From: Bacteroidota bacterium
Lineage (GTDB): Bacteria > Bacteroidota > Bacteroidia > Flavobacteriales_F > PHOS-HE28
Assembly: GCA_023418095.1 (NCBI GenBank)
Contig: JAEZDL010000078.1
Coordinates: 142 to 64,141 of the forward strand
Direction: 5' to 3'
DNA length: 64,000 nucleotides
Shown: positions 15,093-62,766 of the stretch, piece by piece
Position numbering within the stretch: the stretch's first letter is position 1
Layout of the letters: the number at the start of each line of letters is the position of its first letter
Program-made: the position numbers and the translations under genes
The notes under the pieces: generated by a model
The model's database searches: none
Told to the model about the DNA's origin: nothing
Seen by the model: the letters and a program-made list of their open reading frames with translations, nothing else

Positions 15093-15155
15093 GCTGCGTT
15101 GAAAGTGTCGCAAGCTAAGTCAGGCCGCACTTCGATCGAATAGTTTCGCGATCGA

Positions 15156-25002: not shown

Positions 25003-25731
25003 ATGCGCGCAGAGCAAGTACGAGATATCGGGAAGATCCTTTTCCTGGACATCGAGACCGTGCCGCAGCATTGGAACTGGGAGGACCTCGATCCGGTCAC
25101 CGCGCGTCTGTTCAGCGACAAAACGCGTTGGGAACAGGAGCGTACCGAACGATCCGTGCAACAGATCTATGCCGATCGTGCGGGCATTCTAGCGGAGTTC
25201 GGAAAGATCATCTGCATCGGGGCGGCATACATCTCCGCGGATCGGGAGGGATCGCGAATGCGGGTCACTTCGTTCCAAGGGGATGATGAACAGCTATTGC
25301 TCCAGCAATTCACCGATCTTCTTCAACAGTATTACAATACGGATGAGCACTGGCTTTGCGGCCATAACATCAAGGAATTCGATCTGCCATACATCGCACG
25401 GCGTTGCATCGTGCAGCGCGTGCGTCTGCCCCGTTTGCTCGATAATTCGGGATCGAAACCGTGGGAAGTTTGCCACATCGATACCATGTCGCTCTGGTGC
25501 TTCGGCGATCGCAAGGCGTTCACTTCACTTTCGTTGCTCGCCCACATACTTGGCGTTCCCACACCAAAGGATGACATCTCCGGTGCCGATGTGGCACGCG
25601 TCTACCACGTCGATCGCGATCTGGACCGGATCGCGATGTATTGTAGAAAGGATGTCATCGCCACCGCGCAGGTCTATCTGCGTCTAACGGGGCGCGAACC
25701 GATCCCTTCGGAACACATCACCACGATCTGA
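25003..25731 (+). CDS. DEDD-type 3'-5' exonuclease (PolB-exonuclease-like, RNase H-like fold)
   Basis: The three exonuclease motifs are ILFLDIETVP, LCGHNIKEFDLPYI and YCRKDVIATAQVYL. Confidence 0.8.
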   Translation: MRAEQVRDIGKILFLDIETVPQHWNWEDLDPVTARLFSDKTRWEQERTERSVQQIYADRAGILAEFGKIICIGAAYISADREGSRMRVTSFQGDDEQLLLQQFTDLLQQYYNTDEHWLCGHNIKEFDLPYIARRCIVQRVRLPRLLDNSGSKPWEVCHIDTMSLWCFGDRKAFTSLSLLAHILGVPTPKDDISGADVARVYHVDRDLDRIAMYCRKDVIATAQVYLRLTGREPIPSEHITTI

Positions 25732-27453: not shown

Positions 27454-29325
27454 TTAGAGCGGTGCGGATCGATGCAGGAACGCATCCACTCGCAGATCCT
27501 TCAAACTGAATGGATCCCCCGAGCGGTTCCAGATGTATAATTTGCTCGTCGACCCGGCCATGTTCCGTGCGATCTGGAAGCTTGCCGAAAACGCGCCATC
27601 ACGAAGTTCCACCGTCCGGTAATCGATCGATTCATCGCCGCGGCGCACCTCGAGTACGAACAGCAATGGTGGATCGGAAGCTCCCATCGCAAGGTTCCCG
27701 CTCACTTCGATCCTGCTGTATGGAACATGTTCATGATGGATGGGCATCCCACTTATCTCGAATGGGAATTCAGATCCATCGGATCGCCAGGCACCTTCAT
27801 CTGTTCGGATCAGATCCGACCGAAGTATCCCATTCGTTACGCTGTCCTTCCGTTGATCCAGGACCTCGACCGATCCACTCCACCGGTCCGCATCGCGCCG
27901 CTCGAAGATGAACACTTCGAACTGGCGGCCCCCGAGCACCACCATCGGTGTTCCAGGCTGATGCTGCTCGATGAATGTGAGCGCCGGATGCTCCAGCAGC
28001 CATTGAAGTTGCGTGTTCCCTTCATTGGGCGAGAAATGTGCATCCCAGATCACCAGATCACCTTCCACCAGACCAAGATCCTTCTCGCGGCCTTTCAGCA
28101 TAGCTCTTGATCGTTCGGAATAAGGATCGATGTCCGCATAAAAGGCGATCAACGGACTGTTGAAAGACACCCGTGCATCTGGCCTTTTGATCTCCTTGAT
28201 GCGTTCGCCCACCTCTGCAAGGAAAAGTTCCTGTTCATCCGGCGGAACGGGCAACGGCCTGTGATCAAGGAATACGACAGCTGCGGTGTACGCATGTCCG
28301 GTTCCGAGAATGACCGCTATCGCAATACGAACATACCTGGATGAAAAAACCGATCCACCGATCCACACGATCACCCAACAGGTGAACAGGACTAGCATTG
28401 GTGCTGTGGTGGCCAGCACACGGAAGAGTCCCAGCGAACCCTTCAGACCTTCTGCCCACAGGTAGGAGTGTAGAATGAAAATACTTAAGGAGGGAAGCAC
28501 CGCAAGAAGGAAAAGAAGCCTCACCAACCTACCCTGCTCATCCTGCCGTTTCAAAATGAAGAATGAACCAACAAGTGCTGGAATGGACCAATGGACGATC
28601 GTGCCGAAGATCGCATCGGTATGCACCAGGAAATGATCCCATGGCCCATTACCGTAAATGTCCTTCGCACCAGTGTACGGATCACCGTTGAACATCCACA
28701 GAGGATCCCCGAATACAAAAGCCGATACCACGGAATAGATGACCGGACCGGTAAGCAGGTATGCGAGCGACCACCATTGCCTGCGTGATGCGATCCAAAT
28801 GACAAGGAAGGGAATGAAAGCAACATACTCAGGCCGCGAGAAAGGCATGAACGATGCGATGATCGCGGCCTGGCGCGCATTGCCGTTCCATGCTGAACGG
28901 ATCACAAGGATCGAAAGCAGGCCGAACAGTATCTCTGTCATTCCTGCTATCACCATTGTTCCGTAAACAGGGACCAGCAACAGGGCGGCCGGAAAGATCC
29001 AACGTGCGGCTGTACCGGCCCGTTTCAAAATACCATCCGCAGCCCAGGCGGTCGCCACGAAACACACGGCATTGAACACGGTCATTCCCCAGTGGCCCAA
29101 CTGGGCGAAAGGAGAAGCCAGCAGTGTGAACAATGGTTTTCCCCACAGATCGGCGAAGAGCGTGGGATGCTGCCAGGAGAATCTGGCGATCTGGTAATGC
29201 GCGATGGTATCGCCACCCTCCAGCAGACCGACCGAAAGCAGGCGGATGATGATCGGTACAGAAGCGAGGGCCACCCACCACCATGCGGGCGAGATGGATC
29301 CTGTGCGATCGGCTGCTTCTGTCAT
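27454..29325 (-). CDS. GT-C-like polytopic membrane protein 1 (ad hoc GTC1) with soluble C-terminal beta-rich domain
   Basis: 623 aa with about 11 hydrophobic helices in the first ~360 aa. The acidic/aromatic motif LLEGGDTIAHYQIARFSW follows helix 1. About 260 aa are soluble and end in KLYIWNRSGDPFSLKDLRVDAF. There is an ATGA overlap with the upstream gene (29322..29325). The function is inferred. Confidence 0.6.
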   Translation of the reverse strand: MTEAADRTGSISPAWWWVALASVPIIIRLLSVGLLEGGDTIAHYQIARFSWQHPTLFADLWGKPLFTLLASPFAQLGHWGMTVFNAVCFVATAWAADGILKRAGTAARWIFPAALLLVPVYGTMVIAGMTEILFGLLSILVIRSAWNGNARQAAIIASFMPFSRPEYVAFIPFLVIWIASRRQWWSLAYLLTGPVIYSVVSAFVFGDPLWMFNGDPYTGAKDIYGNGPWDHFLVHTDAIFGTIVHWSIPALVGSFFILKRQDEQGRLVRLLFLLAVLPSLSIFILHSYLWAEGLKGSLGLFRVLATTAPMLVLFTCWVIVWIGGSVFSSRYVRIAIAVILGTGHAYTAAVVFLDHRPLPVPPDEQELFLAEVGERIKEIKRPDARVSFNSPLIAFYADIDPYSERSRAMLKGREKDLGLVEGDLVIWDAHFSPNEGNTQLQWLLEHPALTFIEQHQPGTPMVVLGGRQFEVFIFERRDADRWSGSVEVLDQRKDSVTNGILRSDLIRTDEGAWRSDGSEFPFEISGMPIHHEHVPYSRIEVSGNLAMGASDPPLLFVLEVRRGDESIDYRTVELRDGAFSASFQIARNMAGSTSKLYIWNRSGDPFSLKDLRVDAFLHRSAPL

Positions 29326-30683
29326 CGTGCGATCCCTTTTTTCGCAGCTTCGTAATCGGGATAGTTCAAAAAGGGCTCGGAACCAGTTAATGGCTCCATG
29401 GAGCCGAATGTTCCGATGTATGCTTTGAACGTCATTGCATCATGGTGGATGGCGCCCACTTCGTACTGATACGTCTGAAAAACATTCAACCATATCAGGA
29501 ATGCCATGATCGGAAAAGCGACGATCATCAGAACAGGTTTAAGCATGATCCGTCCAATGAATGCAGCAAGCGGAATGCTCATCAAAGAATAGAAATCCAC
29601 CATGCTTCTCTGGCCAAAAGAGCCACCATACCACCAGCACCACCACGAGAAAGTGATATATATCAACAGGACAAGGAATGTCACAATGGCGATCCGCAAG
29701 TGTTCAAGGTTCTTTCTCAGGAAAACAAGACCTATCGTGGCCAAAGCCATTATCGGCGTATAGATGAACCAACCCTTACGAAAACCGAAGAGACCTTCCG
29801 TGATCTTGGGCCGATCAAAATAGAACCGCTCGCCCATATATGAATTGAACAAATATGAACCGGTGATGTAGTTCCAATAGTACAATTGAGGCAGCCAGAT
29901 CAACAGAGCCAGCAAAGCCATTGTAAGGATTTCCGGCCATCTGGACCAGTACATTTCAACCCTCCTCCATATCATGGCAGGGCTTGAGATCCCATATAGA
30001 GCAAAGAACACGATGATCAGGGCATTCGTTGGCCTGATCAGCGAGATCAGGCCGATCAACAATCCAATGGAAATAGTATCGGACCACGATCTCCTTTCGT
30101 ACCAATGGATCGTCTTATGAATGAAAAGGGTGATCAGGAAGAACGAAAAGACATGAGACATACTCCCGGAGTGCGAAGAGTAGAAAAAGAGGTTCGTTCC
30201 GGTACCGAGCAACAAGATCGTTAGAGCTATCGTAATGTCATTGAAACCAAGCCTCTCAAGAATTTTCCTGATCACCAAAAGGCCTATTGTCAAATAGAAC
30301 AAGGCAGCGATCAACAAACCTATCTTGTAAGGAGGCGACCAACCATTTGCCTCGTGATCCGAAATGGTGGCATAAGCATGGCTAAGGAAGAAAAAGGGTG
30401 CATATAACCAGGCAACACCCATTGTGGTCTTTATGATCTTCTCTCCATTTTCCAACTCGCCCGGCCAGAATAAATAATAACCCTGGCCATCGCTATAGTC
30501 ACTATCATCCAGTTCTATGTCCTTGTAAATGAAGATTGCCGGGAGATAAGCATAATATGAATGAACGTCCCATTCGATCACCCGATCCGTTTCTTGCCAA
30601 AGTTTCAGGTCGATGTCCACATATGCACATGCGGCGATCACCAACATTATGGCAACAGAGGACCATTTTCCAAGCGATCTCAT
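29322..30683 (-). CDS. GT-C-like polytopic membrane glycosyltransferase candidate 2 (GTC2; PMT/GT39-like)
   Basis: Start taken at MRSLGKWSS, which gives an ATGA overlap with the GT2 stop (30680..30683). The first-loop motif is IEWDVHSYYAYLPAIFIYKD. About 11 helices. It is a paralogue of the N-terminal part of 33481..35262. Confidence 0.65.
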   Translation of the reverse strand: MRSLGKWSSVAIMLVIAACAYVDIDLKLWQETDRVIEWDVHSYYAYLPAIFIYKDIELDDSDYSDGQGYYLFWPGELENGEKIIKTTMGVAWLYAPFFFLSHAYATISDHEANGWSPPYKIGLLIAALFYLTIGLLVIRKILERLGFNDITIALTILLLGTGTNLFFYSSHSGSMSHVFSFFLITLFIHKTIHWYERRSWSDTISIGLLIGLISLIRPTNALIIVFFALYGISSPAMIWRRVEMYWSRWPEILTMALLALLIWLPQLYYWNYITGSYLFNSYMGERFYFDRPKITEGLFGFRKGWFIYTPIMALATIGLVFLRKNLEHLRIAIVTFLVLLIYITFSWWCWWYGGSFGQRSMVDFYSLMSIPLAAFIGRIMLKPVLMIVAFPIMAFLIWLNVFQTYQYEVGAIHHDAMTFKAYIGTFGSMEPLTGSEPFLNYPDYEAAKKGIAR

Positions 30684-31417
30684 TTTGAACGGAGCAGACC
30701 ATACTTGATGATCGTCCAAAAGATCCGCAAACCATCGCTGTTCCTCAACTTCTTCCCTTCACCCATATTCCGTGGGTGATAATGGACCGGAACCTCCGCG
30801 ATCCAGTTCCGGCGGATCCGTCCGCATTTTATGATCAACTCCGCTTCGAACCCGAAACGATCTTCACGAAGATCCAATTTGTTGAACAGTTCCTTTGTGA
30901 GGAGCTTATACCCACATGCCATGTCCGTGAGATGCACATCGATCAGGATCGAGGTGATCATTGTGAAGATCCTATTGGCGAGGTATCGCCGGTAAGCCGC
31001 TTGCGTCCTGAGAACGCCAGGTAAGTATCTGGAGCCGTTGATGAATGGAACTTGCAATGTTCGCATCGCATCAAGCATGGAAGGAATGTCCTTCGGATCC
31101 AATTCCCTATCCGCATCCTGTATGAGAAGATGATCTCCCGTCGCCAATGCCGCGGCTGTTCGAACTGCTGCTCCTTTCCCTTGATTACGCTCGTGGCGGT
31201 GAACGGAAACGCGTGGCTGGGACGAAGCGTATTCCTTCGCTATTTCATACGACCGATCCGTGGATCTATCGTCCACTACGATCACTTCCACACTTTCAAG
31301 GAACGCCGGATATTGGACCTGCAGAAGCGCATTCAGCACGGGTACGATCAGCTCCTCCTCATTAAAGAGCGGCACTAGAATGCTCAGTCTCATCAGCTCG
31401 TCAGCAGTTCTGCGCAT
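30680..31417 (-). CDS. GT2 polyprenyl-phosphate sugar synthase-like glycosyltransferase (Dpm1/GtrB/ArnC type), copy a
   Basis: About 245 aa, soluble. Motifs are LSILVPLFNEEE, VVDDRSTDRS, NQGKGAAVR, LIQDADRELDP (DxD) and TDMACGYKLL...RFGFEAE. The start is ATG 31417 (the ORF opens at TTG 31420). Confidence 0.8.
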   Translation of the reverse strand: MRRTADELMRLSILVPLFNEEELIVPVLNALLQVQYPAFLESVEVIVVDDRSTDRSYEIAKEYASSQPRVSVHRHERNQGKGAAVRTAAALATGDHLLIQDADRELDPKDIPSMLDAMRTLQVPFINGSRYLPGVLRTQAAYRRYLANRIFTMITSILIDVHLTDMACGYKLLTKELFNKLDLREDRFGFEAELIIKCGRIRRNWIAEVPVHYHPRNMGEGKKLRNSDGLRIFWTIIKYGLLRSK

Positions 31418-31459
31418 CAAAGAAAGGAAAGCGGCTTAACACTATACTTGCTGCGCACC

Positions 31460-33484
31460 ATGAACAGTTGGCCTGAGATGTCGAAGCTTGCGAAATGGTC
31501 GCTTGTCCTCTTTCTGTTCGTGGTGGGTATGTGGTCCTTCACTATTCCAATGTTCGGACCTGACTATTCATCGATCCCGGGGACCATTGGCAAGGCCCGC
31601 ACTGCTAATTATGCTTTGGAACATTTCCATTCCTTCTGCATTGGAAAAACCGATGACTACTGGAATGCGCCATTCATGCATCCTGCCGCGAACGCGATCG
31701 CCTATTCCGATGGTCTATTGGGCACCGCGCCGATCTACTCGGCCTTGCGATCATTCGGATCCAACCGGGAAACGTCCTTTCAAGCCTGGATCGCGATCCT
31801 GTTCGCGCTCAATTTTTGGGCGTGCTTTTTTTCTTTGAAACAGTGGAGTGGCCGGGTGATGATTGCGGGTTGCGGAGCATTCATCTTCGCATTTGGGATC
31901 TTTCAACTCGGGCAGCTGGACCATTGGGGAATGCTCCCGCGGTTCATGGTTCCGATCGCATTCATGTGCGCTTGGAAATACCTGGAGGAGCGCCGGACGA
32001 AATTCATGTTCATGACCGTTCTTGTGGTCGCATACCAATTCTACTGCAGCATTCATATCGGCATCTTCTTATTGTTCTCCATCGTTCTCCTTTCCATTGG
32101 ATCCCTGTTCTTCCACCGGCTTGGCATTTCGACGCGCGCTCCGCGATCGAAGACCATGGTACGAGATGCCGCACTTGCAACTGTTGCGTTGGCCGCTCTA
32201 CTGGCACCCTTGGCCCTGCCATACATTGAAATTCATGGATCATTGCGGGGATCACAATACAACGATGCCCAAGGCCCATCACTGGGAATAGCTTCATACT
32301 GGAACAGTCATCCTGCGGCAAGTTCGTGGCAGGATCTATCCATCCAACAGGAGTCCACCAACGCTGAACAGCTGAACCATTCTCTATATCCAGGGATCTT
32401 GCCATGGCTCGCTGTAATTGCCGGCCTGGCTGTTGCCCTCGGAGGAAAATATCCAGTCATGATCCGGAAGCGGATCGGAATACTTTTAATCGGCTGGACA
32501 CTGAACATGCTCTTTTCCATCGATATCGGTGGATCGACCTTTTATCAATTCGTTCTTCGTCACACACGCTTCTCAATGATCGACCCGACCTTGGGTTCTG
32601 TGACCATGCAGGTGATGTTCACCATGTTCATCCTCGTTCCACTTGCGTCACTTCTGTCGGTCAAACGATGGACTTCGATCGCGATCGCTTTCGCGCTGCC
32701 CGCATTGGTGATCCTGGATAATAAGATCGATGTGCGACGGATCGGAACGTTCAATAAATGGGCTTCACGCGATCAGGTCGGCGAGGTGACCCGGCACTTG
32801 ACAGGCGAACTTTCCGATCAGCGATCGGCCGTGGCATACATGCCAGTACTTCCGATCATGGAACCCGGATCCTTATACGATCACGTCATCGAAATACATA
32901 CATCGGCAATGCTCGCTGCGCAGGAAATAGGCGTGCCGATCGTGAACGCATACTCACGCAAATTCCCAAAACGATACCAGCCTTTCTTTGAGCGCTTGGA
33001 CAAGGTTTCACTGGACTATTGGCTCGCATCCCAAGGGAAACCTAACGTCCATGTCCGGGCGATCGATGGTCTGTTCATTCCGATCGAGCGCACGGACACG
33101 GTAACACTACAAGCCGCCGACGGCAATTTCATTAGCACCAACACCCCTGGTACCTGGTTGCTTGTAGCCGATCGGCCTACGCCGCTCCTATGGGGAACCT
33201 ATCGATCGATCTCTACTTCGGACGGTAGGATCGCGCTCCTTGCGCATAACGGGAACTTCGTGTGCGCCGAGCTTCTACAACACCAACAAGTGAGTGCCAC
33301 TGCGCCGGATCTGGGCGATTTCGGCCTGTTCAAAAAAGTGGATCTGGGCGATGGATGGATCGCGTTGCAAGCACATAACGATCGCTTCCTTTCAGTGAAT
33401 GATGAAGGTCTGATACATGCTTCTTCGGATTCGATCGGCGTAAAGGAACGCTTCAAATTCACGGTGATCAATTCACAGCGATGA
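31460..33484 (+). CDS. polytopic membrane protein (GTC3, possible GT-C/YfhO-like) with C-terminal beta-trefoil (fascin-like) domain
   Basis: Start at ATG 31460 (the ORF opens at TTG 31448). There are many helices in the first ~420 aa, and a loop-1 region ANYALEHFHSFCIGKTDDYWNAPFMHP...AYSDGLLG. A soluble region ends in three ~40-aa repeats (33095..33481). Confidence 0.55.
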   Translation: MNSWPEMSKLAKWSLVLFLFVVGMWSFTIPMFGPDYSSIPGTIGKARTANYALEHFHSFCIGKTDDYWNAPFMHPAANAIAYSDGLLGTAPIYSALRSFGSNRETSFQAWIAILFALNFWACFFSLKQWSGRVMIAGCGAFIFAFGIFQLGQLDHWGMLPRFMVPIAFMCAWKYLEERRTKFMFMTVLVVAYQFYCSIHIGIFLLFSIVLLSIGSLFFHRLGISTRAPRSKTMVRDAALATVALAALLAPLALPYIEIHGSLRGSQYNDAQGPSLGIASYWNSHPAASSWQDLSIQQESTNAEQLNHSLYPGILPWLAVIAGLAVALGGKYPVMIRKRIGILLIGWTLNMLFSIDIGGSTFYQFVLRHTRFSMIDPTLGSVTMQVMFTMFILVPLASLLSVKRWTSIAIAFALPALVILDNKIDVRRIGTFNKWASRDQVGEVTRHLTGELSDQRSAVAYMPVLPIMEPGSLYDHVIEIHTSAMLAAQEIGVPIVNAYSRKFPKRYQPFFERLDKVSLDYWLASQGKPNVHVRAIDGLFIPIERTDTVTLQAADGNFISTNTPGTWLLVADRPTPLLWGTYRSISTSDGRIALLAHNGNFVCAELLQHQQVSATAPDLGDFGLFKKVDLGDGWIALQAHNDRFLSVNDEGLIHASSDSIGVKERFKFTVINSQR

Positions 33485-35262
33485 ATACCAGATCGCTTGT
33501 AGCGCTTGCGCTATCATTCATGGCAATTGTCGTCGTGCGCTGGTCCACACTGGATCCACGGAAAGAACTCTCCTGGGATGTCTTCGGCTATTACCTGTAC
33601 GCACCATCGGTATTCATCCATGGTGATCTTAAGTTGGATGATATATCGTGGATCCACGACGCACAACAGACATACGGCACCACGGAGACATTGTACCAGA
33701 TCACCGATGCGCCCGATGGATCGCGCATGTTCTTCTTTTTGATGGGGATGTCGATCCTTTATTCGCCTTTCTTTTTGATCGGGCATCTGTGGGCTTTTGC
33801 TTCGGGAGCACCGATGGACGGGTTCAGCGAACCTTATCAATGGGCGCTTGGGCTAGGTGGCACCTTATACTCCTTGATCGGGTTGTACTTCCTGCGCCGG
33901 ATCCTTCTTCGCTATTTCAGTGATGTGGTGACGGCCGCGGTGATCATCGTGATCGTTCTGGGGACGAATTATTTCCAATTCAGTACGATCAAGAATCTTG
34001 AGACAGCCAATTTCCTATTTACCGGCGTCGCTTGGATGACGTGGTCCACCATCCGCTGGCATGAGACGTTCCGCCGCGTAGATCTGATCCAGATCGCAAT
34101 TGCGATCGGCCTGATCACACTCGTGAAACCAAGCGAGATCATTTGTGGCCTTGTGCCTTTGTTATGGGGTATCCATGATCGAACGACATTAACCGCCAAG
34201 GTCAACATTATGCGTGTACATCGGCGTGATCTGATGATCGCGATACTCATCGGGCTTTTCGTTCTTTCACCGCAACTGATCTACTGGAAATGGCGCACCG
34301 GTCAGTTCATCTATGATAGTTACCGGAATCCTGGAGTGGGTCTGGACCTGTTCACGCCTCACATTTGGGAAACCTTGTTCAGTTTCAGGAAAGGCTGGCT
34401 GATCTATACGCCGATCATGCTCCTCGCATTGATCGGTATACCAAGGCTTCGAAAGACCCTGCCACACGCGTTCCTGCCAGTCTTGATCCATTCGATCGTC
34501 GCGTTCTGGATCATTTCGAGCTGGTCCGAATGGTGGTATGGTGCAAGTTTCAGCATAAGGCCGATGATAACGCTCTACCCTTTGCTCGCGATCCCGCTCG
34601 GTATTACGCTCCAAGCCTTCGCGCAAAAAGGTGGGTCAATGAAGATCGCATTGGCCACAACGATCGTTCTGCTGATCGGGTTGAACCTGTTCCAGATGTG
34701 GCAATTGAACAATTGGGTGATCCATCCTTATCGTACTACGACCGCATATTATTGGAAGGTCTTTGGCCGGACCACTGTTCCACATGGCGCTCACGAACTC
34801 TTGTCGGTGGAAAGGCGTTTTGATGGAAAGGAAGTATTCGTGGATACAACAGGCTACAGAACGATCGAACTCATCACCGATCGTTCATCCGCTAGCGCTG
34901 AATTGGATACGCTTACCAAAAATGATCCATTCCTCCCGATCATTGAAGTTCCATATTCGGATATCACTTCTGCAGATCACTTTTGGGCAAGACCGAGTGC
35001 TGAAGTGCTCGTTCCTGATGAAGGTGCGCAGAAGGCGGCTGTGTTGGTAGTTCGGATGGAGCGCAAGGAAGGAGGCTACGGAGAGCGGACCTTTCAAGTT
35101 CCTGATCATACCTCGCCCGGAGAATGGGTCACGATCAAAGGCGATTTCATGACGCCCGAGATCCGATCAAGAAGTGATCGTTTCAAGGTGTATCTCTGGA
35201 TCAGAGACGGGGATACGGCGTTTGTCCGGGCGCCGCGGGTGACGGCATTCCTGCCCGATTAA
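33481..35262 (+). CDS. GT-C-like polytopic membrane glycosyltransferase candidate 4 (GTC4; PMT/GT39-like) with C-terminal beta-rich domain
   Basis: ATGA overlap with the upstream stop. The first-loop motif is LSWDVFGYYLYAPSVFIHGD. About 11 helices occupy the first ~420 aa. The soluble tail ends in RFKVYLWIRDGDTAFVRAPRVTAF. Confidence 0.65.
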   Translation: MNTRSLVALALSFMAIVVVRWSTLDPRKELSWDVFGYYLYAPSVFIHGDLKLDDISWIHDAQQTYGTTETLYQITDAPDGSRMFFFLMGMSILYSPFFLIGHLWAFASGAPMDGFSEPYQWALGLGGTLYSLIGLYFLRRILLRYFSDVVTAAVIIVIVLGTNYFQFSTIKNLETANFLFTGVAWMTWSTIRWHETFRRVDLIQIAIAIGLITLVKPSEIICGLVPLLWGIHDRTTLTAKVNIMRVHRRDLMIAILIGLFVLSPQLIYWKWRTGQFIYDSYRNPGVGLDLFTPHIWETLFSFRKGWLIYTPIMLLALIGIPRLRKTLPHAFLPVLIHSIVAFWIISSWSEWWYGASFSIRPMITLYPLLAIPLGITLQAFAQKGGSMKIALATTIVLLIGLNLFQMWQLNNWVIHPYRTTTAYYWKVFGRTTVPHGAHELLSVERRFDGKEVFVDTTGYRTIELITDRSSASAELDTLTKNDPFLPIIEVPYSDITSADHFWARPSAEVLVPDEGAQKAAVLVVRMERKEGGYGERTFQVPDHTSPGEWVTIKGDFMTPEIRSRSDRFKVYLWIRDGDTAFVRAPRVTAFLPD

Positions 35263-35272
35263 GACCTTGGAT

Positions 35273-36766
35273 CTATTCCCGTAACAAGAACCGATCATCC
35301 ATCTTGGACAGACGCAGATCGCCTAAACGATAAGTGGGAACACCATCCTCTTCGGTCAAGAAACCTGATGGCAGGATCTCACCACGGGTCACTTCATGAC
35401 CGATCGCCGATGCGATCCAATGGAAAAAATACATGTCACCGAATAATTGAAAAGATCCATCTGCATGAGAGATGGTATGGTATGAGTGCGAATAATCCTC
35501 ATTCCAAGCCAACACCACCCCGCCTTCGATCGGGTCGCCATTATCATCGATCAGGCGGCCTCTGATCCGAGCATCATCATGATCCGAGTAATTATAATAG
35601 TTCGGTAACATTTCACAGCCGGCCCCGATCTCCTGCTGATCGAATTTCCGGAACGCTTCTACTGTCGCCTTTCCCTTTCCATCGATCGCCAGAAGACCCA
35701 TGTAATCCGAATGGAATCTGCCCCAACGTACATCCTTATACTGCCACCAGGAATATCCGATCCCACCACACGCTTTTGTCTTCGCCAATGTTCGTTCCGC
35801 GAATGATCGTTGCTCATCAAAACTCACCGAATCGCCATCTGCAGGTAACGAGGTTTCACCAATGATCCAGGGCGTGCGAACGTGCTTTCCATACCACGTG
35901 ATCTCATTCACCACTTGACCAGGCTCGTATTCATAGGGATGGAAGGAAATGAAATCAACATCGAGTATATCTGGATCCCACGCGAATACCTCGCGTACTC
36001 CGACAAGGCCGATCGTAACCATGTGGTGTGGTGCGTGTTCCCGCACCAATTCACGCCATCGCTTCATGGTGCTGTATACTTCTTTCTTCGCCCGGTGATG
36101 TGGCCTATCGAAGTACAGTGGCTCGTTGAAAAGATCGTAGGCTAAGATCCCCGGATGATGCTTCAATCGGGAAAGGATCTGAACGGCATGCTCTTCGAAC
36201 ACCCGATCGTCCGGTCTCATCCGTAACAACAAAATCACACGGAGGCCTTCCTCATGCGCAACATCGATCAGGTCGTCCAACGCCTCGAAATACCGCGCCT
36301 GCCAATGTCCTTCGAAGGTCAATAGTGTGTCCGTGCCCAATCCGTACCGGCTCGGTAGTTGAATTTTCCCATTATCAGGGTCGATCACCAGATCCGGAGA
36401 GAGGCCGAAGCGAACAGCGTTGAAACCCATTCGGCGCATTTCACCGAATTCATGCGATAATAGATCACGCGAATCCTTGCGGGAATTCGAATGATAATTC
36501 CCGCCACCCAAATAGTCCATGCCAGATGTGGCCCAGCAACTATCCCCGTTCCATTGAAGATCGACGAGATAATTGATCACAAGAGGAAAGAATTGTTCGT
36601 TATTGAGAACGAATCCGTCATTCTCGATCCCAACGAACTGCGCAGGCCTCTTCCTTGCACAGGAAGGCAGGAGTAAGATCAGTAGGATCCAGGCAAGTGA
36701 AGCGGCAGCTCTAGAGTTTCCGAAAGCAAACGCCGATCGCGGATCCACAAATGCATCATTTTTCAT
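35273..36766 (-). CDS. glycoside hydrolase family 5-like lipoprotein with C-terminal CarboxypepD_reg-like domain
   Basis: Signal peptide with lipobox ILLLPSC. GH5 acid/base context AYDLFNEPLYF and nucleophile context PWIIGETSLPADG. The C-terminal IRGRLIDDNGDPIEGGVVLAW...ADGSFQL resembles a carboxypeptidase-regulatory fold. Confidence 0.75.
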   Translation of the reverse strand: MKNDAFVDPRSAFAFGNSRAAASLAWILLILLLPSCARKRPAQFVGIENDGFVLNNEQFFPLVINYLVDLQWNGDSCWATSGMDYLGGGNYHSNSRKDSRDLLSHEFGEMRRMGFNAVRFGLSPDLVIDPDNGKIQLPSRYGLGTDTLLTFEGHWQARYFEALDDLIDVAHEEGLRVILLLRMRPDDRVFEEHAVQILSRLKHHPGILAYDLFNEPLYFDRPHHRAKKEVYSTMKRWRELVREHAPHHMVTIGLVGVREVFAWDPDILDVDFISFHPYEYEPGQVVNEITWYGKHVRTPWIIGETSLPADGDSVSFDEQRSFAERTLAKTKACGGIGYSWWQYKDVRWGRFHSDYMGLLAIDGKGKATVEAFRKFDQQEIGAGCEMLPNYYNYSDHDDARIRGRLIDDNGDPIEGGVVLAWNEDYSHSYHTISHADGSFQLFGDMYFFHWIASAIGHEVTRGEILPSGFLTEEDGVPTYRLGDLRLSKMDDRFLLRE

Positions 36767-38457
36767 CTACCCTTCGCAGCATTGCCAAGATCCGAATTGA
36801 TCAACCCCAATAGTGTGCAGTTCTCATTGGAATAGATCAGGGTGTAGCGCTTCAAGGCGTCTTTCAGGAAGCAATCGGTCGTATCGTTGGCCAGGTCTTG
36901 ATACTTCCCGAGAATGAAGATGTGATCCACTTCTTGACGGGGCTGATCATTCTGCGCCCAAGGTTCACTTATCAATTCTGCCACCCGCATCTTCCCCATC
37001 CATAATCCTGGGACCTGCTCCTCATTCCATTTCAATGGAAAGTAACCCAACCCCGCCTCATAATTCTCCAAGATCACAACAGGAGTATTCACCCCGAGAT
37101 AATTCGAGTAGTGCCTTCCCAGCCAATTGCCTGAACGATCAAAGGGGTATATGATCGAACCAGCCCGGAGGTACTCGCCTGCCGCTTCGCAATTCATGGC
37201 GATGCGGTTCTGCTCGCGCACTACAGAAATGTAGTATCTACTCAATGCAAGATGGGAGAAAAGGACAAATACGATGGCTGCCCATGTCACCAATTTCGGC
37301 ATTCGGTGAAGCGATAGCGCCGCAATGAAGATCATGAAGAACATGAGACCCAGCCGGACTGTCATGTAACCAGCCGCGCCATTCCCATCAGGCAAGACCA
37401 GATACAACACGAGGAATACAAGACACATGATCCACCAGAAGTAGATCGAATTCCGATCCGATCGGACAGGTTTGGCAGCCGCCGGATGTGAACGAATGCT
37501 ATTGGCCAGAAAGATCGACAGCGAACCCATCAATAGTATGGCAAGTACGTGAACGATACGCCTTGTATGAACGCATTCCAATTCAATGTTGTATGATATG
37601 ATAGGCCTGAGCGTATGGACCCATTCCAATAATTCATTCATGCTCACGAACGTATAGGCCGATGCTTCAGGCATGTGCCAATAGTAGTTCAAGGCCAACA
37701 GGACAGGAACGAACGATGCGAAAGTCAGGCGAACGACCCCAGGCCAGGCGGAACGAAACATCGCATTCAGATCAATACGCCCCCGTGTGATCGAGCCGAT
37801 CACAATATATAAAGCAAGCATGATGAGTGTAAGCCCGAAAACGAAGATGTGCGCGAAATACAATAGAATGAGAAGCCCTGCCAGGCCAAATTGGATGCGC
37901 TGGGTGTGACCTGTGTGATCCGAACTTATCCAGGCAGCCAAGGCGAGGAACATAAGGATCAATGCCAACGAATAATTATAGAAGCCCAGTGTGAACAGGT
38001 ATGAATAACAAAAAGGAAGAATAAAGAAACTGTATTCAATATTATAAGGGCTTATAACCTTTATCAGCCAACGGAACGCGTAAGGCAGACCAACCAGGTA
38101 GGTCAAGAGCACGACTTTTTCAGCAAGAAATGCCGGCAATACGGTCAGGCTGGCGGCTAACATGAGATGGCCCAGCCAATTAGGCACCGGGATCTCCGTG
38201 AGATCGTAGAATGTCCGCACACTTTCGGTCCCGCCGAAGAAAAGCTCGTAGATCAACCTTGAATTATAGAGATGTGCCGGTCCATCCATCGAGGGGAACC
38301 ATTTGAATAGCAACACCGGCAAAGTGTTCAATAACACCGCTATGAGGAAGAGGGACCGCTCAACGGCTCGATAAGATAATTTCCCAAATGCTCCAACCGA
38401 TCGTGAGTTGATGGCCTTAGCTTTATACAGTGGCTCAAAAAAGTGCAGTACACGCAC
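36763..38457 (-). CDS. polytopic membrane protein (GTC5, possible GT-C-like), lower-GC gene
   Basis: 564 aa with about 12 helices. The motif WFPSMDGPAHLYNSRLIYE follows helix 1. About 170 aa form a soluble C-terminal domain. The stop overlaps the GH5 start (ATGA, 36763..36766). Confidence 0.55.
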   Translation of the reverse strand: MRVLHFFEPLYKAKAINSRSVGAFGKLSYRAVERSLFLIAVLLNTLPVLLFKWFPSMDGPAHLYNSRLIYELFFGGTESVRTFYDLTEIPVPNWLGHLMLAASLTVLPAFLAEKVVLLTYLVGLPYAFRWLIKVISPYNIEYSFFILPFCYSYLFTLGFYNYSLALILMFLALAAWISSDHTGHTQRIQFGLAGLLILLYFAHIFVFGLTLIMLALYIVIGSITRGRIDLNAMFRSAWPGVVRLTFASFVPVLLALNYYWHMPEASAYTFVSMNELLEWVHTLRPIISYNIELECVHTRRIVHVLAILLMGSLSIFLANSIRSHPAAAKPVRSDRNSIYFWWIMCLVFLVLYLVLPDGNGAAGYMTVRLGLMFFMIFIAALSLHRMPKLVTWAAIVFVLFSHLALSRYYISVVREQNRIAMNCEAAGEYLRAGSIIYPFDRSGNWLGRHYSNYLGVNTPVVILENYEAGLGYFPLKWNEEQVPGLWMGKMRVAELISEPWAQNDQPRQEVDHIFILGKYQDLANDTTDCFLKDALKRYTLIYSNENCTLLGLINSDLGNAAKGR

Positions 38458-38458
38458 T

Positions 38459-39178
38459 TTACAGGCCGTATTTCATGATACACCAGATCGCACGGAAACC
38501 GTCCTTCCAGCCGATCTTTTTTCCTTCAGCATAGGTGCGACCATAATAGCTGATGCCGACCTCATAGATCCGGATGCCTGGTATTTTGGCAAGCTTGGCG
38601 GTCACCTCCGGCTCAAATCCAAACCTCTTTTCCCGTAGATCCAGGCTTTTTGCGATATCGCTTCGGATCAACTTGTAACATGTTTCCATGTCCGTGAGGT
38701 TGAGGTTATTGAACGCATTGGACAATTGTGTAAGCACCTTATTGCCGATGCTGTGCCAGAAAAATAGGATCCGATGCGGATGATGGCCCATGAAGCGAGA
38801 ACCGTAGACGACATCTGCAAAACCTTCTACAACGGGCTTCAGTAAGAGATTGTACTCACGCGGATCGTATTCCAGGTCGGCGTCCTGCACGATCAGGTGT
38901 TCACCGATCGCTTCTTTGATCCCGCGATGGATCGCCGCTCCTTTGCCCATGTTGCGCGGTTGCTCAAAGAACCTGATCGGGAAGTCGGGGTGCCGATCGA
39001 TGTAGGCGCGGATCGCGGCGGCCGTGCCATCCTTTGAACCATCATCAACGATCACAACGTCCTTTTGGATGCCATGATCAAGGATCACGTTGCGCACGCG
39101 ATCGAGGATCAGGTGGATCGTGCGCTCCTCATTGTACGCGGGAATGATGATGGAGAGCATACGCGGCCTATGTTCCAT
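38459..39178 (-). CDS. GT2 polyprenyl-phosphate sugar synthase-like glycosyltransferase (Dpm1/GtrB/ArnC type), copy b
   Basis: 239 aa. Motifs are [46 protein letters not shown] and [10 protein letters not shown]...RFGFEPE. It aligns along its whole length with 30680..31417. Confidence 0.8.
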
Positions 39179-39211
39179 CCGATCGGAAATGTTGGAAAAT
39201 GCGAACCTCCT

Positions 39212-39871
39212 TCATTCAGAGATCTCCCCTATCTCACCCTCGACCACAAGCCGGCCTTCGGTCTTCGCCTTGATCTCTTCCACCGAAACTCCTGGCGCAC
39301 GCTCCAAAAGTTTGAAACCGTCGGGTGTCACATCGAATACACCTAGATCGGTCACGATCTTCTTCACACATTGCACACCCGTCAGCGGTAGTGTGCATTT
39401 CTTCAGCAACTTGCTTTCGCCTGCCTTGTTGGTGTGCATCATCACCACTATGATGTTGTCCGCGCTGCTCACCAGATCCATGGCGCCACCCATTCCCTTC
39501 ACCATTTTGCCCGGAATCTTCCAATTGGCGATATCGCCGTTGTCCGCCACTTCCATGGCGCCGAGCACGGTAAGTTGCACGTGTTGGCCGCGGATCATGG
39601 CGAAACTGGTGGCGCTGTCGAAAATGCTGCTGCCGGGCAAAAGCGTCACGGTCTGTTTTCCCGCGTTGATCAGATCCGCATCTTCTTCACCTTCGATCGG
39701 GAACGGCCCCATGCCGAGAATGCCGTTCTCGCTTTGGAGCACCACGTTGATGTTCTGTGGAATGTAATTGGCCACCAGCGTGGGAATGCCGATCCCCAGG
39801 TTCACATAATAACCATCGCGCAATTCCCGCGCGATACGCCTCGCCATCTGTTCCTTGTTCAGCCCCATCAC
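39212..39871 (-). CDS. scoB: 3-oxoacid CoA-transferase subunit B
   Basis: 219 aa with the catalytic-Glu context [16 protein letters not shown], typical of the CoA-transferase family I beta subunit. Confidence 0.92.
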
Positions 39872-39904
39872 TTCAATTGAAAGCTTCCAAATGTAGTGGA
39901 CCTC

Positions 39905-41686
39905 TCACAATGGATCGATCACTTCATGGATCGTGACCTTCACTTCATCCATCTCGAACGCCTGCTTTTTCGGGTTCCAGAAATAGATCACCGTTTCATC
40001 CGATCCGCTTCGCGGAAGATCGAGCATCATATGGAGTTCCTCACCCTTCCAGCGCGGCCTGAAGTGGGAGATCGGGATCGAATTGTAATGGATCGTTCCT
40101 CCATTCAATTTTTGTGAAGCGACGATCAAAAGGTCAAGGAACTGTTGATCGGATCGAATGCGGGTACGGATCTCGATCCGAAGATCCCGCAGGCTCACTG
40201 GACGTTCCGGTCTCCAAAGTTCCATGAACTCCGCATCTTCGTTCACTTCGATCTGCAACTGATCGATTTGCCGCGATCGTAGTTCCGCTTTGCGCTTGAG
40301 AAGATGAAGGCCGTTGCCTGGTGAATGATCGATGCTTTGAAAGCCTTGGATCGCTTGGTCGATGAAGCGATCATCCACGATGCGTACATCGTGCGCGCCT
40401 TTCGGGAAACCGATCACATCAGGGGGTTGCAGCCCGATGCCGTTCGTTCTTGCCGCGTACGGTATGGCATAGCTCAACTGGTGATACGCGCCGATCATCA
40501 ATGGTCTTCCCTGTTCCTTCTGAAAGGCCTCGATCTTTTGTAGAAAGCGGATGGGGACCGATTGTTCCGGCCAAAGCAATGTATGGTCAGTGTTCAAGGT
40601 GAATGCCGTGCGAAGTGGCAGGTAAAGAAGCGAGGACATCAAGAAGATGCGCTGCCAGCAGACCTCGATCCCATCAGCGGTGAACGCGATGAACAGTATG
40701 GCGAGTGGCACCATGTGCAACGCAGCACGATCTTCCGGGTAGTTCACGCCAAGGATCCATGCCATTCCGATCCGCATCAGCACATCGGTGAAAAGCAGCG
40801 TTCCGATCAACGCTGCAACCGATCCGCGCTTCCTGCTGAAGATGATGACGAGCGAGGCAACAATGATCAGCACCACGAGCGCGAGTACGATCGGCACGTC
40901 GGAACCGATCACATAACGCGCGAGGGATGAAATAGTCACCTCAATGAATCCTTCGGTCGATCCATGGTAAAGAAGAGCCCGGCGGCGCATTTCCCACGCT
41001 AGCAACAGACCGAAGGCAAGTGGCACAGCTCCAAGCAGGAACCAGATGGCGCCGATCCGCCAGGGGAATGGTCCACGTTGCTTCATCCAGCGGAAACACC
41101 CGTGCACGCCGATCGCTGCTATTATCAAGGCCCATAACGGTACCAATGAAAGCACGGCCATGTCGGCGAGAAAGAGCGAGATCGACAATTGGATCAGATC
41201 TCTTGGATCGGACCCGCGGAAATAGCGGATCGCAGCATCGATCGCCACGATCCAAAAGGCCATGCCCAGTGCGTAGCCGCGAAAGAGCGAGAAGAAATCG
41301 AGCAGGAACGGGCACATGAGCAGGGCTACCCAGCAGATCCACCGGATCCACCGATCGGAGATGAATTCACCTAAACGCCACACCCCCCAGGCGAAGATGG
41401 GGAACGCGAGAATGCTCCCGATCCTGGAACCGGGCAACGAAAGCCCCCAGATCTTGTGTGCAACGATGCCGATCGCGGTGCTCAGGAAATGATTTCCGGC
41501 ATCCCATAAAGCGGTGTAAGGAAGGAATTCGCCACGCTCCACATACCAGTAGATCGTAGTGCTTTCATCATGGACCCAAGGGATGGATGCGGCCCTGATG
41601 ACGATGTAGGTGAAGATGCATGCGCTGAAAAGCAGGAAAACGATCCGATCGATGAACGGGACCGGATGCTTTTCGCCAACGAGCAT
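39905..41686 (-). CDS. GT-C-like polytopic membrane glycosyltransferase candidate 6 (GTC6; ArnT/PMT-like) with C-terminal beta-rich domain
   Basis: 593 aa. The first-loop motif is IPWVHDESTTIYWYVERGEF. About 11 helices. The soluble tail ends in TVIYFWNPKKQAFEMDEVKVTIHEV. It lies between scoA and scoB on the same strand. Confidence 0.65.
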   Translation of the reverse strand: MLVGEKHPVPFIDRIVFLLFSACIFTYIVIRAASIPWVHDESTTIYWYVERGEFLPYTALWDAGNHFLSTAIGIVAHKIWGLSLPGSRIGSILAFPIFAWGVWRLGEFISDRWIRWICWVALLMCPFLLDFFSLFRGYALGMAFWIVAIDAAIRYFRGSDPRDLIQLSISLFLADMAVLSLVPLWALIIAAIGVHGCFRWMKQRGPFPWRIGAIWFLLGAVPLAFGLLLAWEMRRRALLYHGSTEGFIEVTISSLARYVIGSDVPIVLALVVLIIVASLVIIFSRKRGSVAALIGTLLFTDVLMRIGMAWILGVNYPEDRAALHMVPLAILFIAFTADGIEVCWQRIFLMSSLLYLPLRTAFTLNTDHTLLWPEQSVPIRFLQKIEAFQKEQGRPLMIGAYHQLSYAIPYAARTNGIGLQPPDVIGFPKGAHDVRIVDDRFIDQAIQGFQSIDHSPGNGLHLLKRKAELRSRQIDQLQIEVNEDAEFMELWRPERPVSLRDLRIEIRTRIRSDQQFLDLLIVASQKLNGGTIHYNSIPISHFRPRWKGEELHMMLDLPRSGSDETVIYFWNPKKQAFEMDEVKVTIHEVIDPL

Positions 41687-41693
41687 GATCGGA

Positions 41694-42392
41694 TCACATC
41701 CTTGGCCTTACCGTGCGCTGCTCGATCCGCTTTTCGTAGTTCGTGCCTTGATAGATCCGCTGCACGAAAATGCCTGGCGTGTGGATCTCATCCGGATCCA
41801 ACGCGCCCGGCTCCACGAGTTCCTCCACTTCGGCCACGGTGACCCTTCCGGCCATGGCCATCATGGGATTGAAATTCCGCGCGGTGCGCTTATACACCAG
41901 GTTGCCGGACCGATCACCTTTCCAGGCCTTCACCAGGGCGAAATCGGCCCGCAGCCATTCCTCCATCACATACATCTTTCCATTGAACTCGCGCGTCTCC
42001 TTCCCCTCGGCCACTTCGGTACCGTAACCCGCCGGAGTGAAGAACGCCGGAATGCCCGCTCCACCTGCACGACACCTTTCGGCCAGGGTTCCCTGCGGAA
42101 TGAGCTCGACCTCGAGTTCGCCGCTCAACATCTGGCGCTCGAATTCGGCGTTCTCACCCACGTAACTACTGATCATCTTCCTGATCTGCCGCGTGCCGAG
42201 CAGGAGCCCGAGCCCGAAATCATCCACGCCGGCATTGTTGCTAATGCAGGTAAGTCCCTTCACCCCTTTCCTCACCAGGGCATTGATGCTGTTCTCGGGG
42301 ATCCCGCAAAGGCCGAAGCCGCCAACCATCAACGTCATCCCGTCCGATAGACCATCAAGCGCCTCCTGCGCATTTGAAACGACCTTGTTCAT
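41694..42392 (-). CDS. scoA: 3-oxoacid CoA-transferase subunit A
   Basis: 232 aa with [16 protein letters not shown] and the rest typical of the CoA-transferase family I alpha subunit. Confidence 0.92.
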
Positions 42393-46021: not shown

Positions 46022-46135
46022 TTCTGCGTCGATCGAAAAATTCCGATCGATGCACATCAACAACCTTCGCGCCGAATTGGCGAATGGCGATGGAAGCATA
46101 CAGCATCAAGGCATTCGAGCGATCGGCCGGCATGA

Positions 46136-60848: not shown

Positions 60849-60855
60849 GGTTCGA

Positions 60856-62616: not shown

Positions 62617-62758
62617 GGAACTTTTTCCTGGCTTCCCCCAGAGGGCTGAAAAGGTTGACCGGCAGTGACCTGGATCGATATTGAACGGATACACGGATCG
62701 TGGATGAAGCGTTGAATATAGCGCCCACCGCCGGATACAGGGAAACGCTATTAATCGG

Positions 62759-62766
62759 TACCTTTG
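62759..62766 (+). promoter_or_regulatory. candidate Bacteroidota -7 promoter box (TAnnTTTG), would give a near-leaderless mRNA
   Basis: TACCTTTG ends 7 nt upstream of ATG 62774. Confidence 0.3.

Follow-up and report, generated by a model that had tools for sequence, protein, structure and literature searches.

A 15-kb locus in a 64,000-nucleotide stretch of DNA from a Bacteroidota bacterium of the Flavobacteriales (contig JAEZDL010000078.1; the whole stretch is referred to here as the window) is probably a variable envelope-glycan glycosylation island, that is, a Bacteroidota variant, with several transferases, of the known three-component systems for periplasmic glycosylation. In systems of this type, a GT2 family polyprenyl-phosphate sugar synthase is combined with a flippase and with a GT-C enzyme that acts outside the cytoplasm on a ready-made glycan (PMC11127046). 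The locus encodes six polytopic membrane proteins (labeled M1 to M6), two soluble glycosyltransferases (GT2a and GT2b), a glycoside hydrolase (GH5), and the two subunits of a 3-oxoacid CoA-transferase (scoA and scoB). All nine open reading frames (ORFs) that a first-pass annotation of the sequence had named in this interval were present in the ORF list with the coordinates it gave; that annotation overlooked scoA and scoB, however, and M6 lies between them. A hydropathy scan identified 8 to 12 hydrophobic segments in each of the six polytopic proteins, for which roughly 9 to 13 helices had first been estimated. These six were the only ORFs of at least 400 amino acids with at least seven transmembrane (TM) segments in the window; all six lie within 15 kb, and the remaining 49 kb contains none.

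To compare M5 and M6 with solved structures, we used AlphaFold models and Foldseek searches of the PDB. Both models contained more than 10 long helices and were of high confidence (pLDDT of 89 and pTM of 0.91 for M5; pLDDT of 92 and pTM of 0.91 for M6), and both displayed the GT-C fold. In the case of M5, the 13 best matches were all GT-C enzymes with a probability of 1.00, namely, Stt3 (yeast and human), ArnT, AftA, AglB, Pmt4, and AftB. The best of these matches was Stt3 (8age_A; E value of 3.7e-4 and TM-score of 0.47), and the TM-scores ranged from 0.38 to 0.47, which is as expected for distant GT-C families. In the case of M6, the 28 best matches were all GT-C enzymes with a probability of 1.00; these included EmbA/B/C, Stt3, ArnT, AftD, PglB, ALG9, ALG12, and AftA, with EmbC (7bve_A) matched at an E value of 6e-7 and the top TM-score going to ALG12 (9s6t_A; 0.45/0.53). 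Taken together, the TM-scores of M5 and M6 to solved GT-C enzymes were 0.35 to 0.53, and unrelated helical membrane proteins appeared only at a probability of 0.3 or lower.

The residues expected near a GT-C active site were also strongly conserved. The first-pass annotation had pointed to an acidic motif just after the first hydrophobic helix, which is the position of the catalytic acidic residue in GT-C enzymes; the motifs it quoted were present in the sequences, and we found conserved acidic residues there in all five families that the six proteins represent. In a 50-sequence alignment of the M5 family, D58, G59, A61, H62, Y64, and N65 were invariant, and D40 and E41 of M6 were invariant in 53 sequences, six of which also had a weak PMT_2 match. 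The loop that follows the first hydrophobic segment was 36 to 94 amino acids long in the five proteins other than M1, whose TM1 was split by our crude segmentation. The periplasmic orientation of this loop is inferred from fold homology. The M5 family itself had 181 homologues, and no Pfam entry was found for any of the 120 that were listed. Cultured species with M5-family genes included Wandonia haliotis, Fluviicola chungangensis, Taishania pollutisoli, Thermaurantimonas aggregans, and Schleiferia thermophila. The public gene call for M5, of 508 amino acids, takes M57 as its start, immediately ahead of the invariant DGPAHLYN sequence, and thereby loses TM1. A GTG start at 38457, giving a 564-amino-acid protein, was supported by the conservation upstream of M57, by a confident model helix at residues 23 to 44, and by a second gene call of 564 amino acids.

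For the remaining membrane proteins, we relied on family profiles. M1 itself had no Pfam match at an E value of 0.01 or lower, and this included GT87 (PF09594; PimE/DUF2029). Among its homologues, 11 of 47 matched GT87 (best E value of 1.6e-6), and some database records name these proteins GT87 or DUF2029. Residues D39 and H43 were invariant in the 47 sequences, and the M1 and M6 family profiles aligned over their full length in hhalign with a probability of 96% (E value of 1.8e-9). M2 and M4 are paralogues (33% identity) and were the sole such pair that BLAST detected among the six proteins. The match of M4 to PMT_2 (PF13231) was 22.7 bits (E value of 1.3e-4), which is under the gathering threshold of 26.1; M2 had no PMT_2 match but did show a weak match to the NCBIfam LA_3751/3752 model, a Leptospira family of putative glycosyltransferases. 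When 70 M2/M4 family sequences from related loci were aligned, 25 had a PMT_2 match at an E value of 0.01 or lower (best E value of 2.8e-8), and D33, the Asp of a WDV motif, was conserved in at least 90% of them. Thus, M2 and M4 are related to the PMT_2 family, although we did not file them as members.

M3 belongs to a large family (2413 cluster representatives at an E value of 1e-3 or lower). None of 63 members had a Pfam or NCBIfam model for the membrane part, with NCBIfam giving spurious weak matches only. The profiles of M3 and M2/M4 aligned with a probability of 85% in local mode (over 295 columns) and of 89.7% in global mode (E value of 2.2e-7). The first-loop motif of the M3 family is IPGDxGDARFNNYILEH, in which R47 and E54 were invariant (E54 in 63 of 63 sequences) and the Asp pair D42 and D45 was kept by 90% or more of the family; the window copy reads IPGTIGKARTANYALEH. 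No significant hhalign alignment was obtained between M5 and M1, M6, or M3, or between M3 and M1 or M6, which indicated that the six proteins do not form one sequence family but at least four families that are unrelated by sequence. Moreover, when the M5, M1, M3, and M2/M4 family profiles were run against the complete set of PDB sequences, no GT-C enzyme was matched, so sequence alone falls short of the solved structures. The first-pass proposal that all six proteins resemble GT-C enzymes was thus carried by structure models for M5 and M6 and well supported by profiles for M1, M2, and M4, for which a GT-C fold can be inferred; the resemblance was only moderate for M3 (hhalign probabilities of 85 to 90%), whose GT-C fold is plausible.

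Five of the six proteins end in an additional domain. A jelly-roll of about 100 residues is shared by M1 (about residues 500 to 623), M4 (about residues 490 to 593), and M6 (about residues 470 to 593) and ends in (V/L)Y(I/F/L)W(N/I); in the M6 model, the C-terminal 150 residues formed a jelly-roll beta-sandwich. The M4 domain was homologous to those of M1 and M6 (82 to 84%) and weakly resembled the carbohydrate-binding module (CBM) 22 tandem 4xup (E value of 0.005). A C-terminal jelly-roll, as seen in M6, is also carried by Emb proteins. The only library matches of M3 were to C-terminal beta-trefoil models (Fascin/FRG1/DUF7910), M5 ends in an alpha/beta domain, and M2 has no such extension. 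Two members of the M2/M4 family carried an M3-type beta-trefoil in place of the jelly-roll, which indicates that recognition domains on the periplasmic side have been exchanged between GT-C cores. The differing C-terminal domains suggest that each enzyme recognizes a different glycan site or linkage.

The two soluble glycosyltransferases are the candidate suppliers of donor sugars. GT2a and GT2b are paralogues (35% identity) that matched Pfam Glycos_transf_2 with E values of 1.7e-31 and 6.5e-30, respectively, and QDAD (the DXD motif) was read in both sequences. Their best NCBIfam matches were AglJ, PgfS, PpgS, a haloarchaeal dolichyl-phosphate (Dol-P) hexose transferase, and ArnC. In the PDB, the top match of both enzymes was the dolichol-phosphate-mannose synthase (DPMS) of Pyrococcus furiosus (5mlz), which aligned with residues 8 to 223 of GT2a (E value of 1.1e-17) and residues 7 to 236 of GT2b (E value of 4.4e-16). 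ArnC aligned with residues 7 to 222 of GT2a; the next matches of GT2b were a PcManGT-type GT2 (6yv7), GtrB (5ekp), and ArnC, with GtrB and ArnC covering only its N-terminal half. Hence, the PDB matches that reached the C-terminal (acceptor) half were DPMS for both enzymes, plus ArnC and GtrB for GT2a, whereas non-lipid GT2 structures (chondroitin synthase, GpgS, and others) covered the nucleotide-binding half only (about residues 1 to 125). These best full-length matches agreed with the first-pass description of the pair as Dpm1/GtrB/ArnC-like, and GT2a and GT2b are probably polyprenyl-phosphate sugar synthases that make lipid-linked donors.

Orthologues of GT2b were found in other orders of the phylum and next to different partners. 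In Chondrinema litorale, a gene whose product is 74% identical to GT2b is located between a gene that PGAP annotated as GtrA family and a gene for a 544-amino-acid polytopic protein, and this trio lies inside an exopolysaccharide (EPS) locus. In Hymenobacter sp. NBH84, a gene with a 68% identical product adjoins one annotated as a "glycosyltransferase family 39 protein"; the Bernardetia orthologue is 60% identical. The partner proteins in Chondrinema and Hymenobacter did not match any of our five membrane-family models. Among 80 metagenome loci, 20 had a GT2b orthologue (E value of about 1e-100) no more than 5 kb from an M4 homologue, in many cases immediately upstream of it; among 79 genome loci, nine had one near an M5 homologue. 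Judged from these homologues, GT2b has the appearance of a conserved donor synthase working with interchangeable GT-C partners.

The embedded hydrolase had been described as a lipoprotein GH5, and our results were in line with that description. GH5 matched Pfam Cellulase with 29.1 bits (gathering score of 23.5), its catalytic glutamates E215 (FNEP) and E304 (GET) were invariant in five orthologues, and a lipobox-like LLLPSC sequence follows the signal sequence. The closest PDB profile matches were endo-beta-mannanases, and these were weak (E values of 0.009 to 0.09).

As shown in Table 1, the genes are arranged in three strings. The first string is GT2a-M2-M1, with 4-bp overlaps. The second is M3-M4, which diverges from GT2a and also has a 4-bp overlap. 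The third is scoA-M6-scoB-GT2b-M5-GH5, in which gaps of 7, 33, 33, and 1 bp are followed by a 4-bp overlap. The divergent start codons of GT2a and M3 are about 40 bp apart (31418-31459), or 27 bp apart with the TTG at 31448 as the start of M3. Because only about 40 bp separate these starts, any promoters located there must overlap coding sequence; our scans for sigma-70 promoter and terminator consensus sequences yielded matches at chance level only. The assignment of scoA was clear (Pfam CoA_trans E value of 1.7e-80; TIGR02429 score of 290 bits versus a cut-off of 128.5), and scoB orthologues at related loci (E values of about 1e-100 or better) carried Pfam CoA_trans.

Table 1. Genes of the locus, with window coordinates, strand, and predicted product.
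Gene	Position	Strand	Description
M1	27454-29325	-	623 aa, polytopic; distant GT87/PimE-like GT-C candidate; C-terminal jelly-roll (CBM-like) domain
M2	29322-30683	-	453 aa, polytopic; M4 paralogue without C-terminal domain; PMT_2-like GT-C candidate
GT2a	30680-31417	-	245 aa, GT-A enzyme without TM helices; candidate polyprenyl-phosphate hexose synthase
M3	31460-33484	+	674 aa, polytopic, large unannotated family; C-terminal beta-trefoil; probable GT-C; lacks the family Asp pair
M4	33481-35262	+	593 aa, polytopic; PMT_2-like GT-C candidate; C-terminal jelly-roll (CBM-like) domain
GH5	35273-36766	-	GH5-family glycoside hydrolase; signal/lipobox-like N-terminus; probable trimming/processing enzyme
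M5	36763-38457	-	564 aa, modeled GT-C fold; family without Pfam/NCBIfam model; C-terminal alpha/beta periplasmic domain
GT2b	38459-39178	-	239 aa, GT-A enzyme without TM helices; candidate polyprenyl-phosphate hexose synthase; highly conserved across Bacteroidota
scoB	39212-39871	-	3-oxoacid CoA-transferase subunit B; outside the glycosylation machinery, same gene string
M6	39905-41686	-	593 aa, modeled GT-C fold; C-terminal jelly-roll; between scoA and scoB
scoA	41694-42392	-	3-oxoacid CoA-transferase subunit A; conserved right border of the island

To examine the island character of the locus, we compared the window with loci of relatives, which are given L numbers (L001, L004, L005/6, and so on). 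The nearest relatives were metagenome-assembled genomes (MAGs) of Flavobacteriales and Cryomorpha, with M5 identities of 55 to 59%. The flanks (exonuclease plus ABC ATPase on one side and scoA/scoB on the other) were conserved in L001, L004, L005/6, and L084, but the content of polytopic proteins differed. The sites in relatives also held families that are foreign to the window, such as DUF6311, a PMT_2-type protein, and GT_STM0557_N, a Pfam model whose name points to STM0557-like glycosyltransferases. Particular modules recurred: the GT2b-M5-GH5 order was kept in L001, L005/6, L008, and L156, the last of which carries GT2b-M5-GH5-M4, and the GT2a-M2 pair recurred in L081. The first-pass annotation considered the density of GT-C-type genes to be mycobacterium-like and unlike known Bacteroidota loci. 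The density is indeed high, but it is not unique, because clusters of two to five such genes were common in relatives; of 44 loci that are anchored on M5 and span 15 kb or more, 26 held two to five large polytopic proteins.

The G+C content was 0.47 to 0.53 over 28 to 39 kb of the window, which is about 5 points lower than the 0.54 to 0.59 observed in the flanks, M6, and scoA/B. Since this dip spans the soluble GT2 and GH5 genes, it is not merely a codon effect of membrane proteins. No tRNA gene was present. The scoA-M6-scoB order was kept in the Flavobacteriales MAG loci L004, L005/6, L166, and L167, even with M6 identities of 37 to 39%, and was absent in L001. M6 has a conserved place within the scoA-scoB operon and lies outside the variable block. 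No functional link was apparent between ketoacid CoA transfer and glycosylation.

The left border of the island, which was conserved in L004, L005/6, and L084, consists of a PolB-exonuclease-like gene and a gene for a permease-less double ABC ATPase (25003-27449). We considered the ABC ATPase (25731-27449) as an exporter component but rejected this idea because it is permease-less, has an oligo_HPY domain, and stays beside the exonuclease whatever the island content. As the first-pass annotation stated, the island contains no initiating phosphoglycosyltransferase, Wzx/Wzy/Wzz, or nucleotide-sugar gene. A phage-borne origin similar to that of gtr seroconversion genes was not supported, as a search of 50,697 phage records yielded no homologue of M4 or M5.

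Based on homology and gene context, the proposed pathway would begin at the cytoplasmic face, where GT2a and GT2b, as peripheral proteins without TM helices, would load a hexose from a nucleotide sugar onto polyprenyl phosphate. A flippase encoded elsewhere would then turn the lipid-linked monosaccharide across the membrane, and the GT-C enzymes would use the acidic residue after TM1 in passing the sugar to an already exported acceptor in the periplasm. The periplasmic C-terminal domains would direct each GT-C enzyme to its own glycan site or linkage, and the GH5 lipoprotein would trim or process the product. The adjacency of the GT-C candidates to the Dpm1-like GT2 genes suggests the use of lipid-phosphate-linked donors, and all six enzymes may act jointly in one pathway. 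An exported polysaccharide or the glycan moiety of a glycoconjugate, possibly based on mannose or glucose, is the likeliest acceptor; a glycan is somewhat favored over a protein by the CBM-like and lectin-like domains, the GH5 gene, and the EPS locus that surrounds the Chondrinema trio.

Several observations weigh against this reading of the locus. In the window M3, residues 39 to 47 (31574-31600) read IPGTIGKAR, such that T42 and K45 replace the nearly invariant Asp pair of the family (GDxGD to GTIGK), and the acidic first-loop conservation anticipated by the first-pass annotation is incomplete to this extent. The first Asp of the motif was kept in all four of the nearest orthologues and in nearly all of the 62 other aligned members. 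We rejected a frameshift artifact as the explanation, because the acc and aag codons are in frame and a one-base shift produces a stop codon; the change is a real substitution in the assembly. Thus, the window M3 may be a catalytically altered, inactive, divergent, or re-purposed paralogue. A crude positive-inside count on the hydropathy segments gave no clear bias for topology, and the 64-kb window contained neither a small ORF with four TM segments nor a gene for a flippase of the GtrA, SMR, MATE, or Wzx-like types. GT2a and GT2b had no predicted TM segments and hence lack the C-terminal TM helices of the GtrB/ArnC subtype; a GT2 architecture without TM helices matches the subtype of Ppm1, PpgS, and human DPM1. 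In addition, the NCBIfam scores of the GT2 enzymes were far under the equivalog cut-offs (94 and 92 versus 325 bits for AglJ, 75 and 65 versus 500 bits for PgfS, 57 versus 370 bits for PpgS, and 41 and 52 versus 529 bits for ArnC), so sugar specificity cannot be assigned. A lean toward mannose can be seen in the matches to DPMS, GT87, ALG12, and, weakly, mannanases, but homology this distant does not fix specificity.

The case for GT-C status in M1 to M4 was built on sub-threshold profile matches, and a family match above a curated Pfam or NCBIfam threshold was missing in four of the six membrane proteins. These gaps, along with the failure of either GT2 to attain an equivalog cut-off, would fit a different explanation, in which the polytopic proteins are transporters or structural proteins instead of enzymes and the GT2s are ordinary glycan-chain enzymes that act on non-lipid acceptors. 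We hold this explanation to be extremely improbable: the fold matches were specific to GT-C enzymes, invariant acidic residues occupy the position of the GT-C catalytic loop, only lipid-phosphate GT2 structures aligned into the C-terminal halves of GT2a and GT2b, and a GtrA gene neighbors the GT2b orthologue in Chondrinema. The idea that relatives share the gene order was borne out for modules (GT2b-M5-GH5, GT2b-M4, and GT2a-M2) but not for the whole cluster; the six membrane protein genes were not kept together as a set, and the M5 homologues were solitary in most distant loci. The flank-like G+C content of M6 and its fixed position inside scoAB also suggest that the six genes may serve more than one pathway. 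It is possible, if doubtful, that a hot spot of recombination lies between the exonuclease/ABC genes and scoAB and has gathered independent GT-C genes for different pathways (LPS [lipopolysaccharide] core or lipid A, EPS, and glycoprotein), with donors made partly elsewhere. The site content differed in every relative examined, homologues of M5, M4, and M1 were often single or in other combinations, M6 is stably placed, and GT2b sits among housekeeping genes in Bernardetia, all of which would be expected of such a site. The tight coupling in the window (4-bp overlaps among GT2a, M2, and M1, between M3 and M4, and between M5 and GH5, and the 1-bp gap between GT2b and M5) and the recurrence of the GT2b-M5-GH5 and GT2b-M4 modules argue against a mere collection of independent genes.

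Two other explanations retain the enzymes but change what they transfer or what they modify. The same enzymes could glycosylate envelope proteins by a PMT-like stepwise periplasmic O-glycosylation, which might supply unassigned core-glycan or transfer steps of Bacteroidota O-glycosylation. PMT_2 matches were present among the M2/M4 homologues and some M6 homologues, the best fold matches of M5 were oligosaccharyltransferase (OTase) subunits and Pmt4, and GtrB-type synthases together with GT-C enzymes glycosylate proteins in streptococci (PMC11092751). Furthermore, the OTase, ligase, and core-glycan machinery of Bacteroidota is undiscovered, and the pathway resembles O-mannosylation (PMC12871550). 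We nevertheless find protein acceptors unlikely, because the M5 family is not phylum-wide, the CBM-like jelly-roll and beta-trefoil domains and the embedded GH5 point to a glycan substrate, and the GT2b trio of Chondrinema sits in an EPS locus. The patchiness of the M5 family, which a genome scan confirmed in only 300 stretches among about 186,000 species genomes, is also too great for general O-glycosylation machinery of the phylum. A broader version of this idea, that the island and GT2b are part of undiscovered periplasmic machinery by which Bacteroidota build or transfer glycans, either in PMT-like protein O-glycosylation or in the assembly of a mannan-like lipoglycan wholly outside the cytoplasm, a mycobacterial route that would here run in a Gram-negative cell, is decidedly unlikely; if it were true, M5 and M3 would represent new families of GT-C glycosyltransferases that have novel acceptor specificity. 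Finally, some or all of the membrane proteins could move preassembled oligosaccharides from polyprenyl diphosphate, as OTases and ligases do, in place of single sugars from monophosphate donors. This fits the appearance of Stt3 and AglB as top fold matches of M5 and of PglB among those of M6; however, the TM-scores of 0.4 to 0.5 were equally good for the monophosphate-using ArnT, Aft, Emb, and ALG enzymes, the adjacent and co-oriented Dpm1-like synthases argue for monophosphate donors, and the locus has no WWDYG-type motif or diphosphate-pathway genes (phosphoglycosyltransferase or Wzx), which makes oligosaccharide transfer very unlikely.

The proposed glycosylation island can be compared with four groups of known systems. 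In the Gtr systems (GtrA/GtrB/GtrC O-antigen glucosylation in Shigella and Salmonella and the related GT136 systems of Klebsiella and Citrobacter), a GT2 synthase is paired with a GT-C enzyme as in the window, and the likeness extends to the GtrA-GT2-polytopic trio that contains the GT2b orthologue of Chondrinema. Unlike those systems, the window has no flippase gene, has not one transferase but six, which belong to four or more sequence families, has GT2s without the two C-terminal TM helices of GtrB, and shows no sign of phage carriage of the genes. The assembly of lipomannan/lipoarabinomannan and arabinan in mycobacteria and corynebacteria, which depends on polyprenyl phosphomannose (Ppm1, PimE, Mpt, Emb, and Aft), shares with the window a Dpm1-like synthase without TM helices and many different GT-C enzymes; the role of Ppm1 has been described (PMC3485146). 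The M1 homologues matched GT87, the PimE family, and the best E values of M6 were to EmbA/B/C, with AftD also matched. In contrast to the mycobacterial system, the host is a Gram-negative member of the Bacteroidota, no decaprenyl-phosphoribose pathway genes are present, the enzymes are clustered in 15 kb, and no window member attained the Pfam gathering score for GT87 or PMT_2.

Gram-positive bacteria combine an undecaprenyl-phosphate-sugar synthase with an extracytoplasmic GT-C enzyme in CsbB/YfhO and GtlA/GtlB (lipoteichoic acid) and in PgfS/PgfM1/PgfM2 and GtrB/PgtC2 (protein O-glycosylation) (PMC5836110, PMC11092751), and PgfS was the second-best NCBIfam match of both GT2s. The window enzymes scored only 65 to 75 bits against the PgfS cut-off of 500, however, and the envelope type and GT-C families differ; the window also has more transferases, plus GH5. 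In the eukaryotic and archaeal Dol-P-Man/Glc pathways (Dpm1/DPMS with PMT and ALG3/9/12), the points of likeness are the Pyrococcus DPMS as the best structure match of both GT2s, ALG12 as the top TM-score of M6 with ALG9 also matched, and the PMT_2 signal in the M2/M4 family. The differences are identities of about 10 to 13% at the fold level, such that no GT22, GT39, or GT58 membership can be claimed, and the bacterial context.

In the literature that we searched, there was no description of this locus type and no match of the whole locus to a characterized system. Periplasmic glycosylation that uses lipid-linked monosaccharides is well understood in enterobacteria, Gram-positive bacteria, and mycobacteria and is essentially undescribed in Bacteroidota. 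According to a 2025 review, the OTase, ligase, and core-glycan machinery of Bacteroidota O-glycosylation has yet to be discovered, and key steps of envelope and protein glycosylation in the phylum are unassigned (PMC12871550); the locus offers concrete candidates. The identities of the components are what a specialist would expect. The useful part is the unannotated GT-C families, the phylum-wide donor synthase, and the modules: at least four GT-C-type sequence families are present, M5 and M3 (more than 2400 cluster representatives in the case of M3) belong to families without a Pfam or NCBIfam model, the candidate donor synthase GT2b is 60 to 74% identical across orders of the phylum, and the recurrent GT2b-M5-GH5 and GT2b-M4 modules can be tested in cultured relatives. 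That gene content varies at a fixed chromosomal site suggests a surface-glycan diversity locus, which would be relevant to interactions with phages and predators.

We also made a number of observations on related loci and on other parts of the window. In Schleiferia thermophila (L002, 3245-7133) and in L003, the M5 homologue was solitary and its context was unlike that of the window; the Schleiferia gene is located directly after genes with GH16 and Peptidase_S74 domains, and a group II intron reverse transcriptase is encoded nearby. In L166 and L167, a PBP1a gene took the place upstream of scoA, and the neighbors in L005 were NUDIX and alpha-2-macroglobulin-like genes. In the window itself, an 822-amino-acid ORF at 43631-46099 (minus strand) had no Pfam family at an E value of 0.01 or lower. 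A third GT2 gene (15156-16160; 334 amino acids) adjoins lpxD (14055-15113). Besides M1 to M6, just one predicted ORF of the window exceeded three TM segments; it is located at 1458-2438 (326 amino acids, eight TM segments, and a weak DUF6427 match). Finally, in confirmation of a Bacteroidota origin, the region 58029-62799 encodes two large proteins that combine PKD domains with C-terminal sorting domains for type IX secretion, and one of the two also has CUB and P-domain matches.

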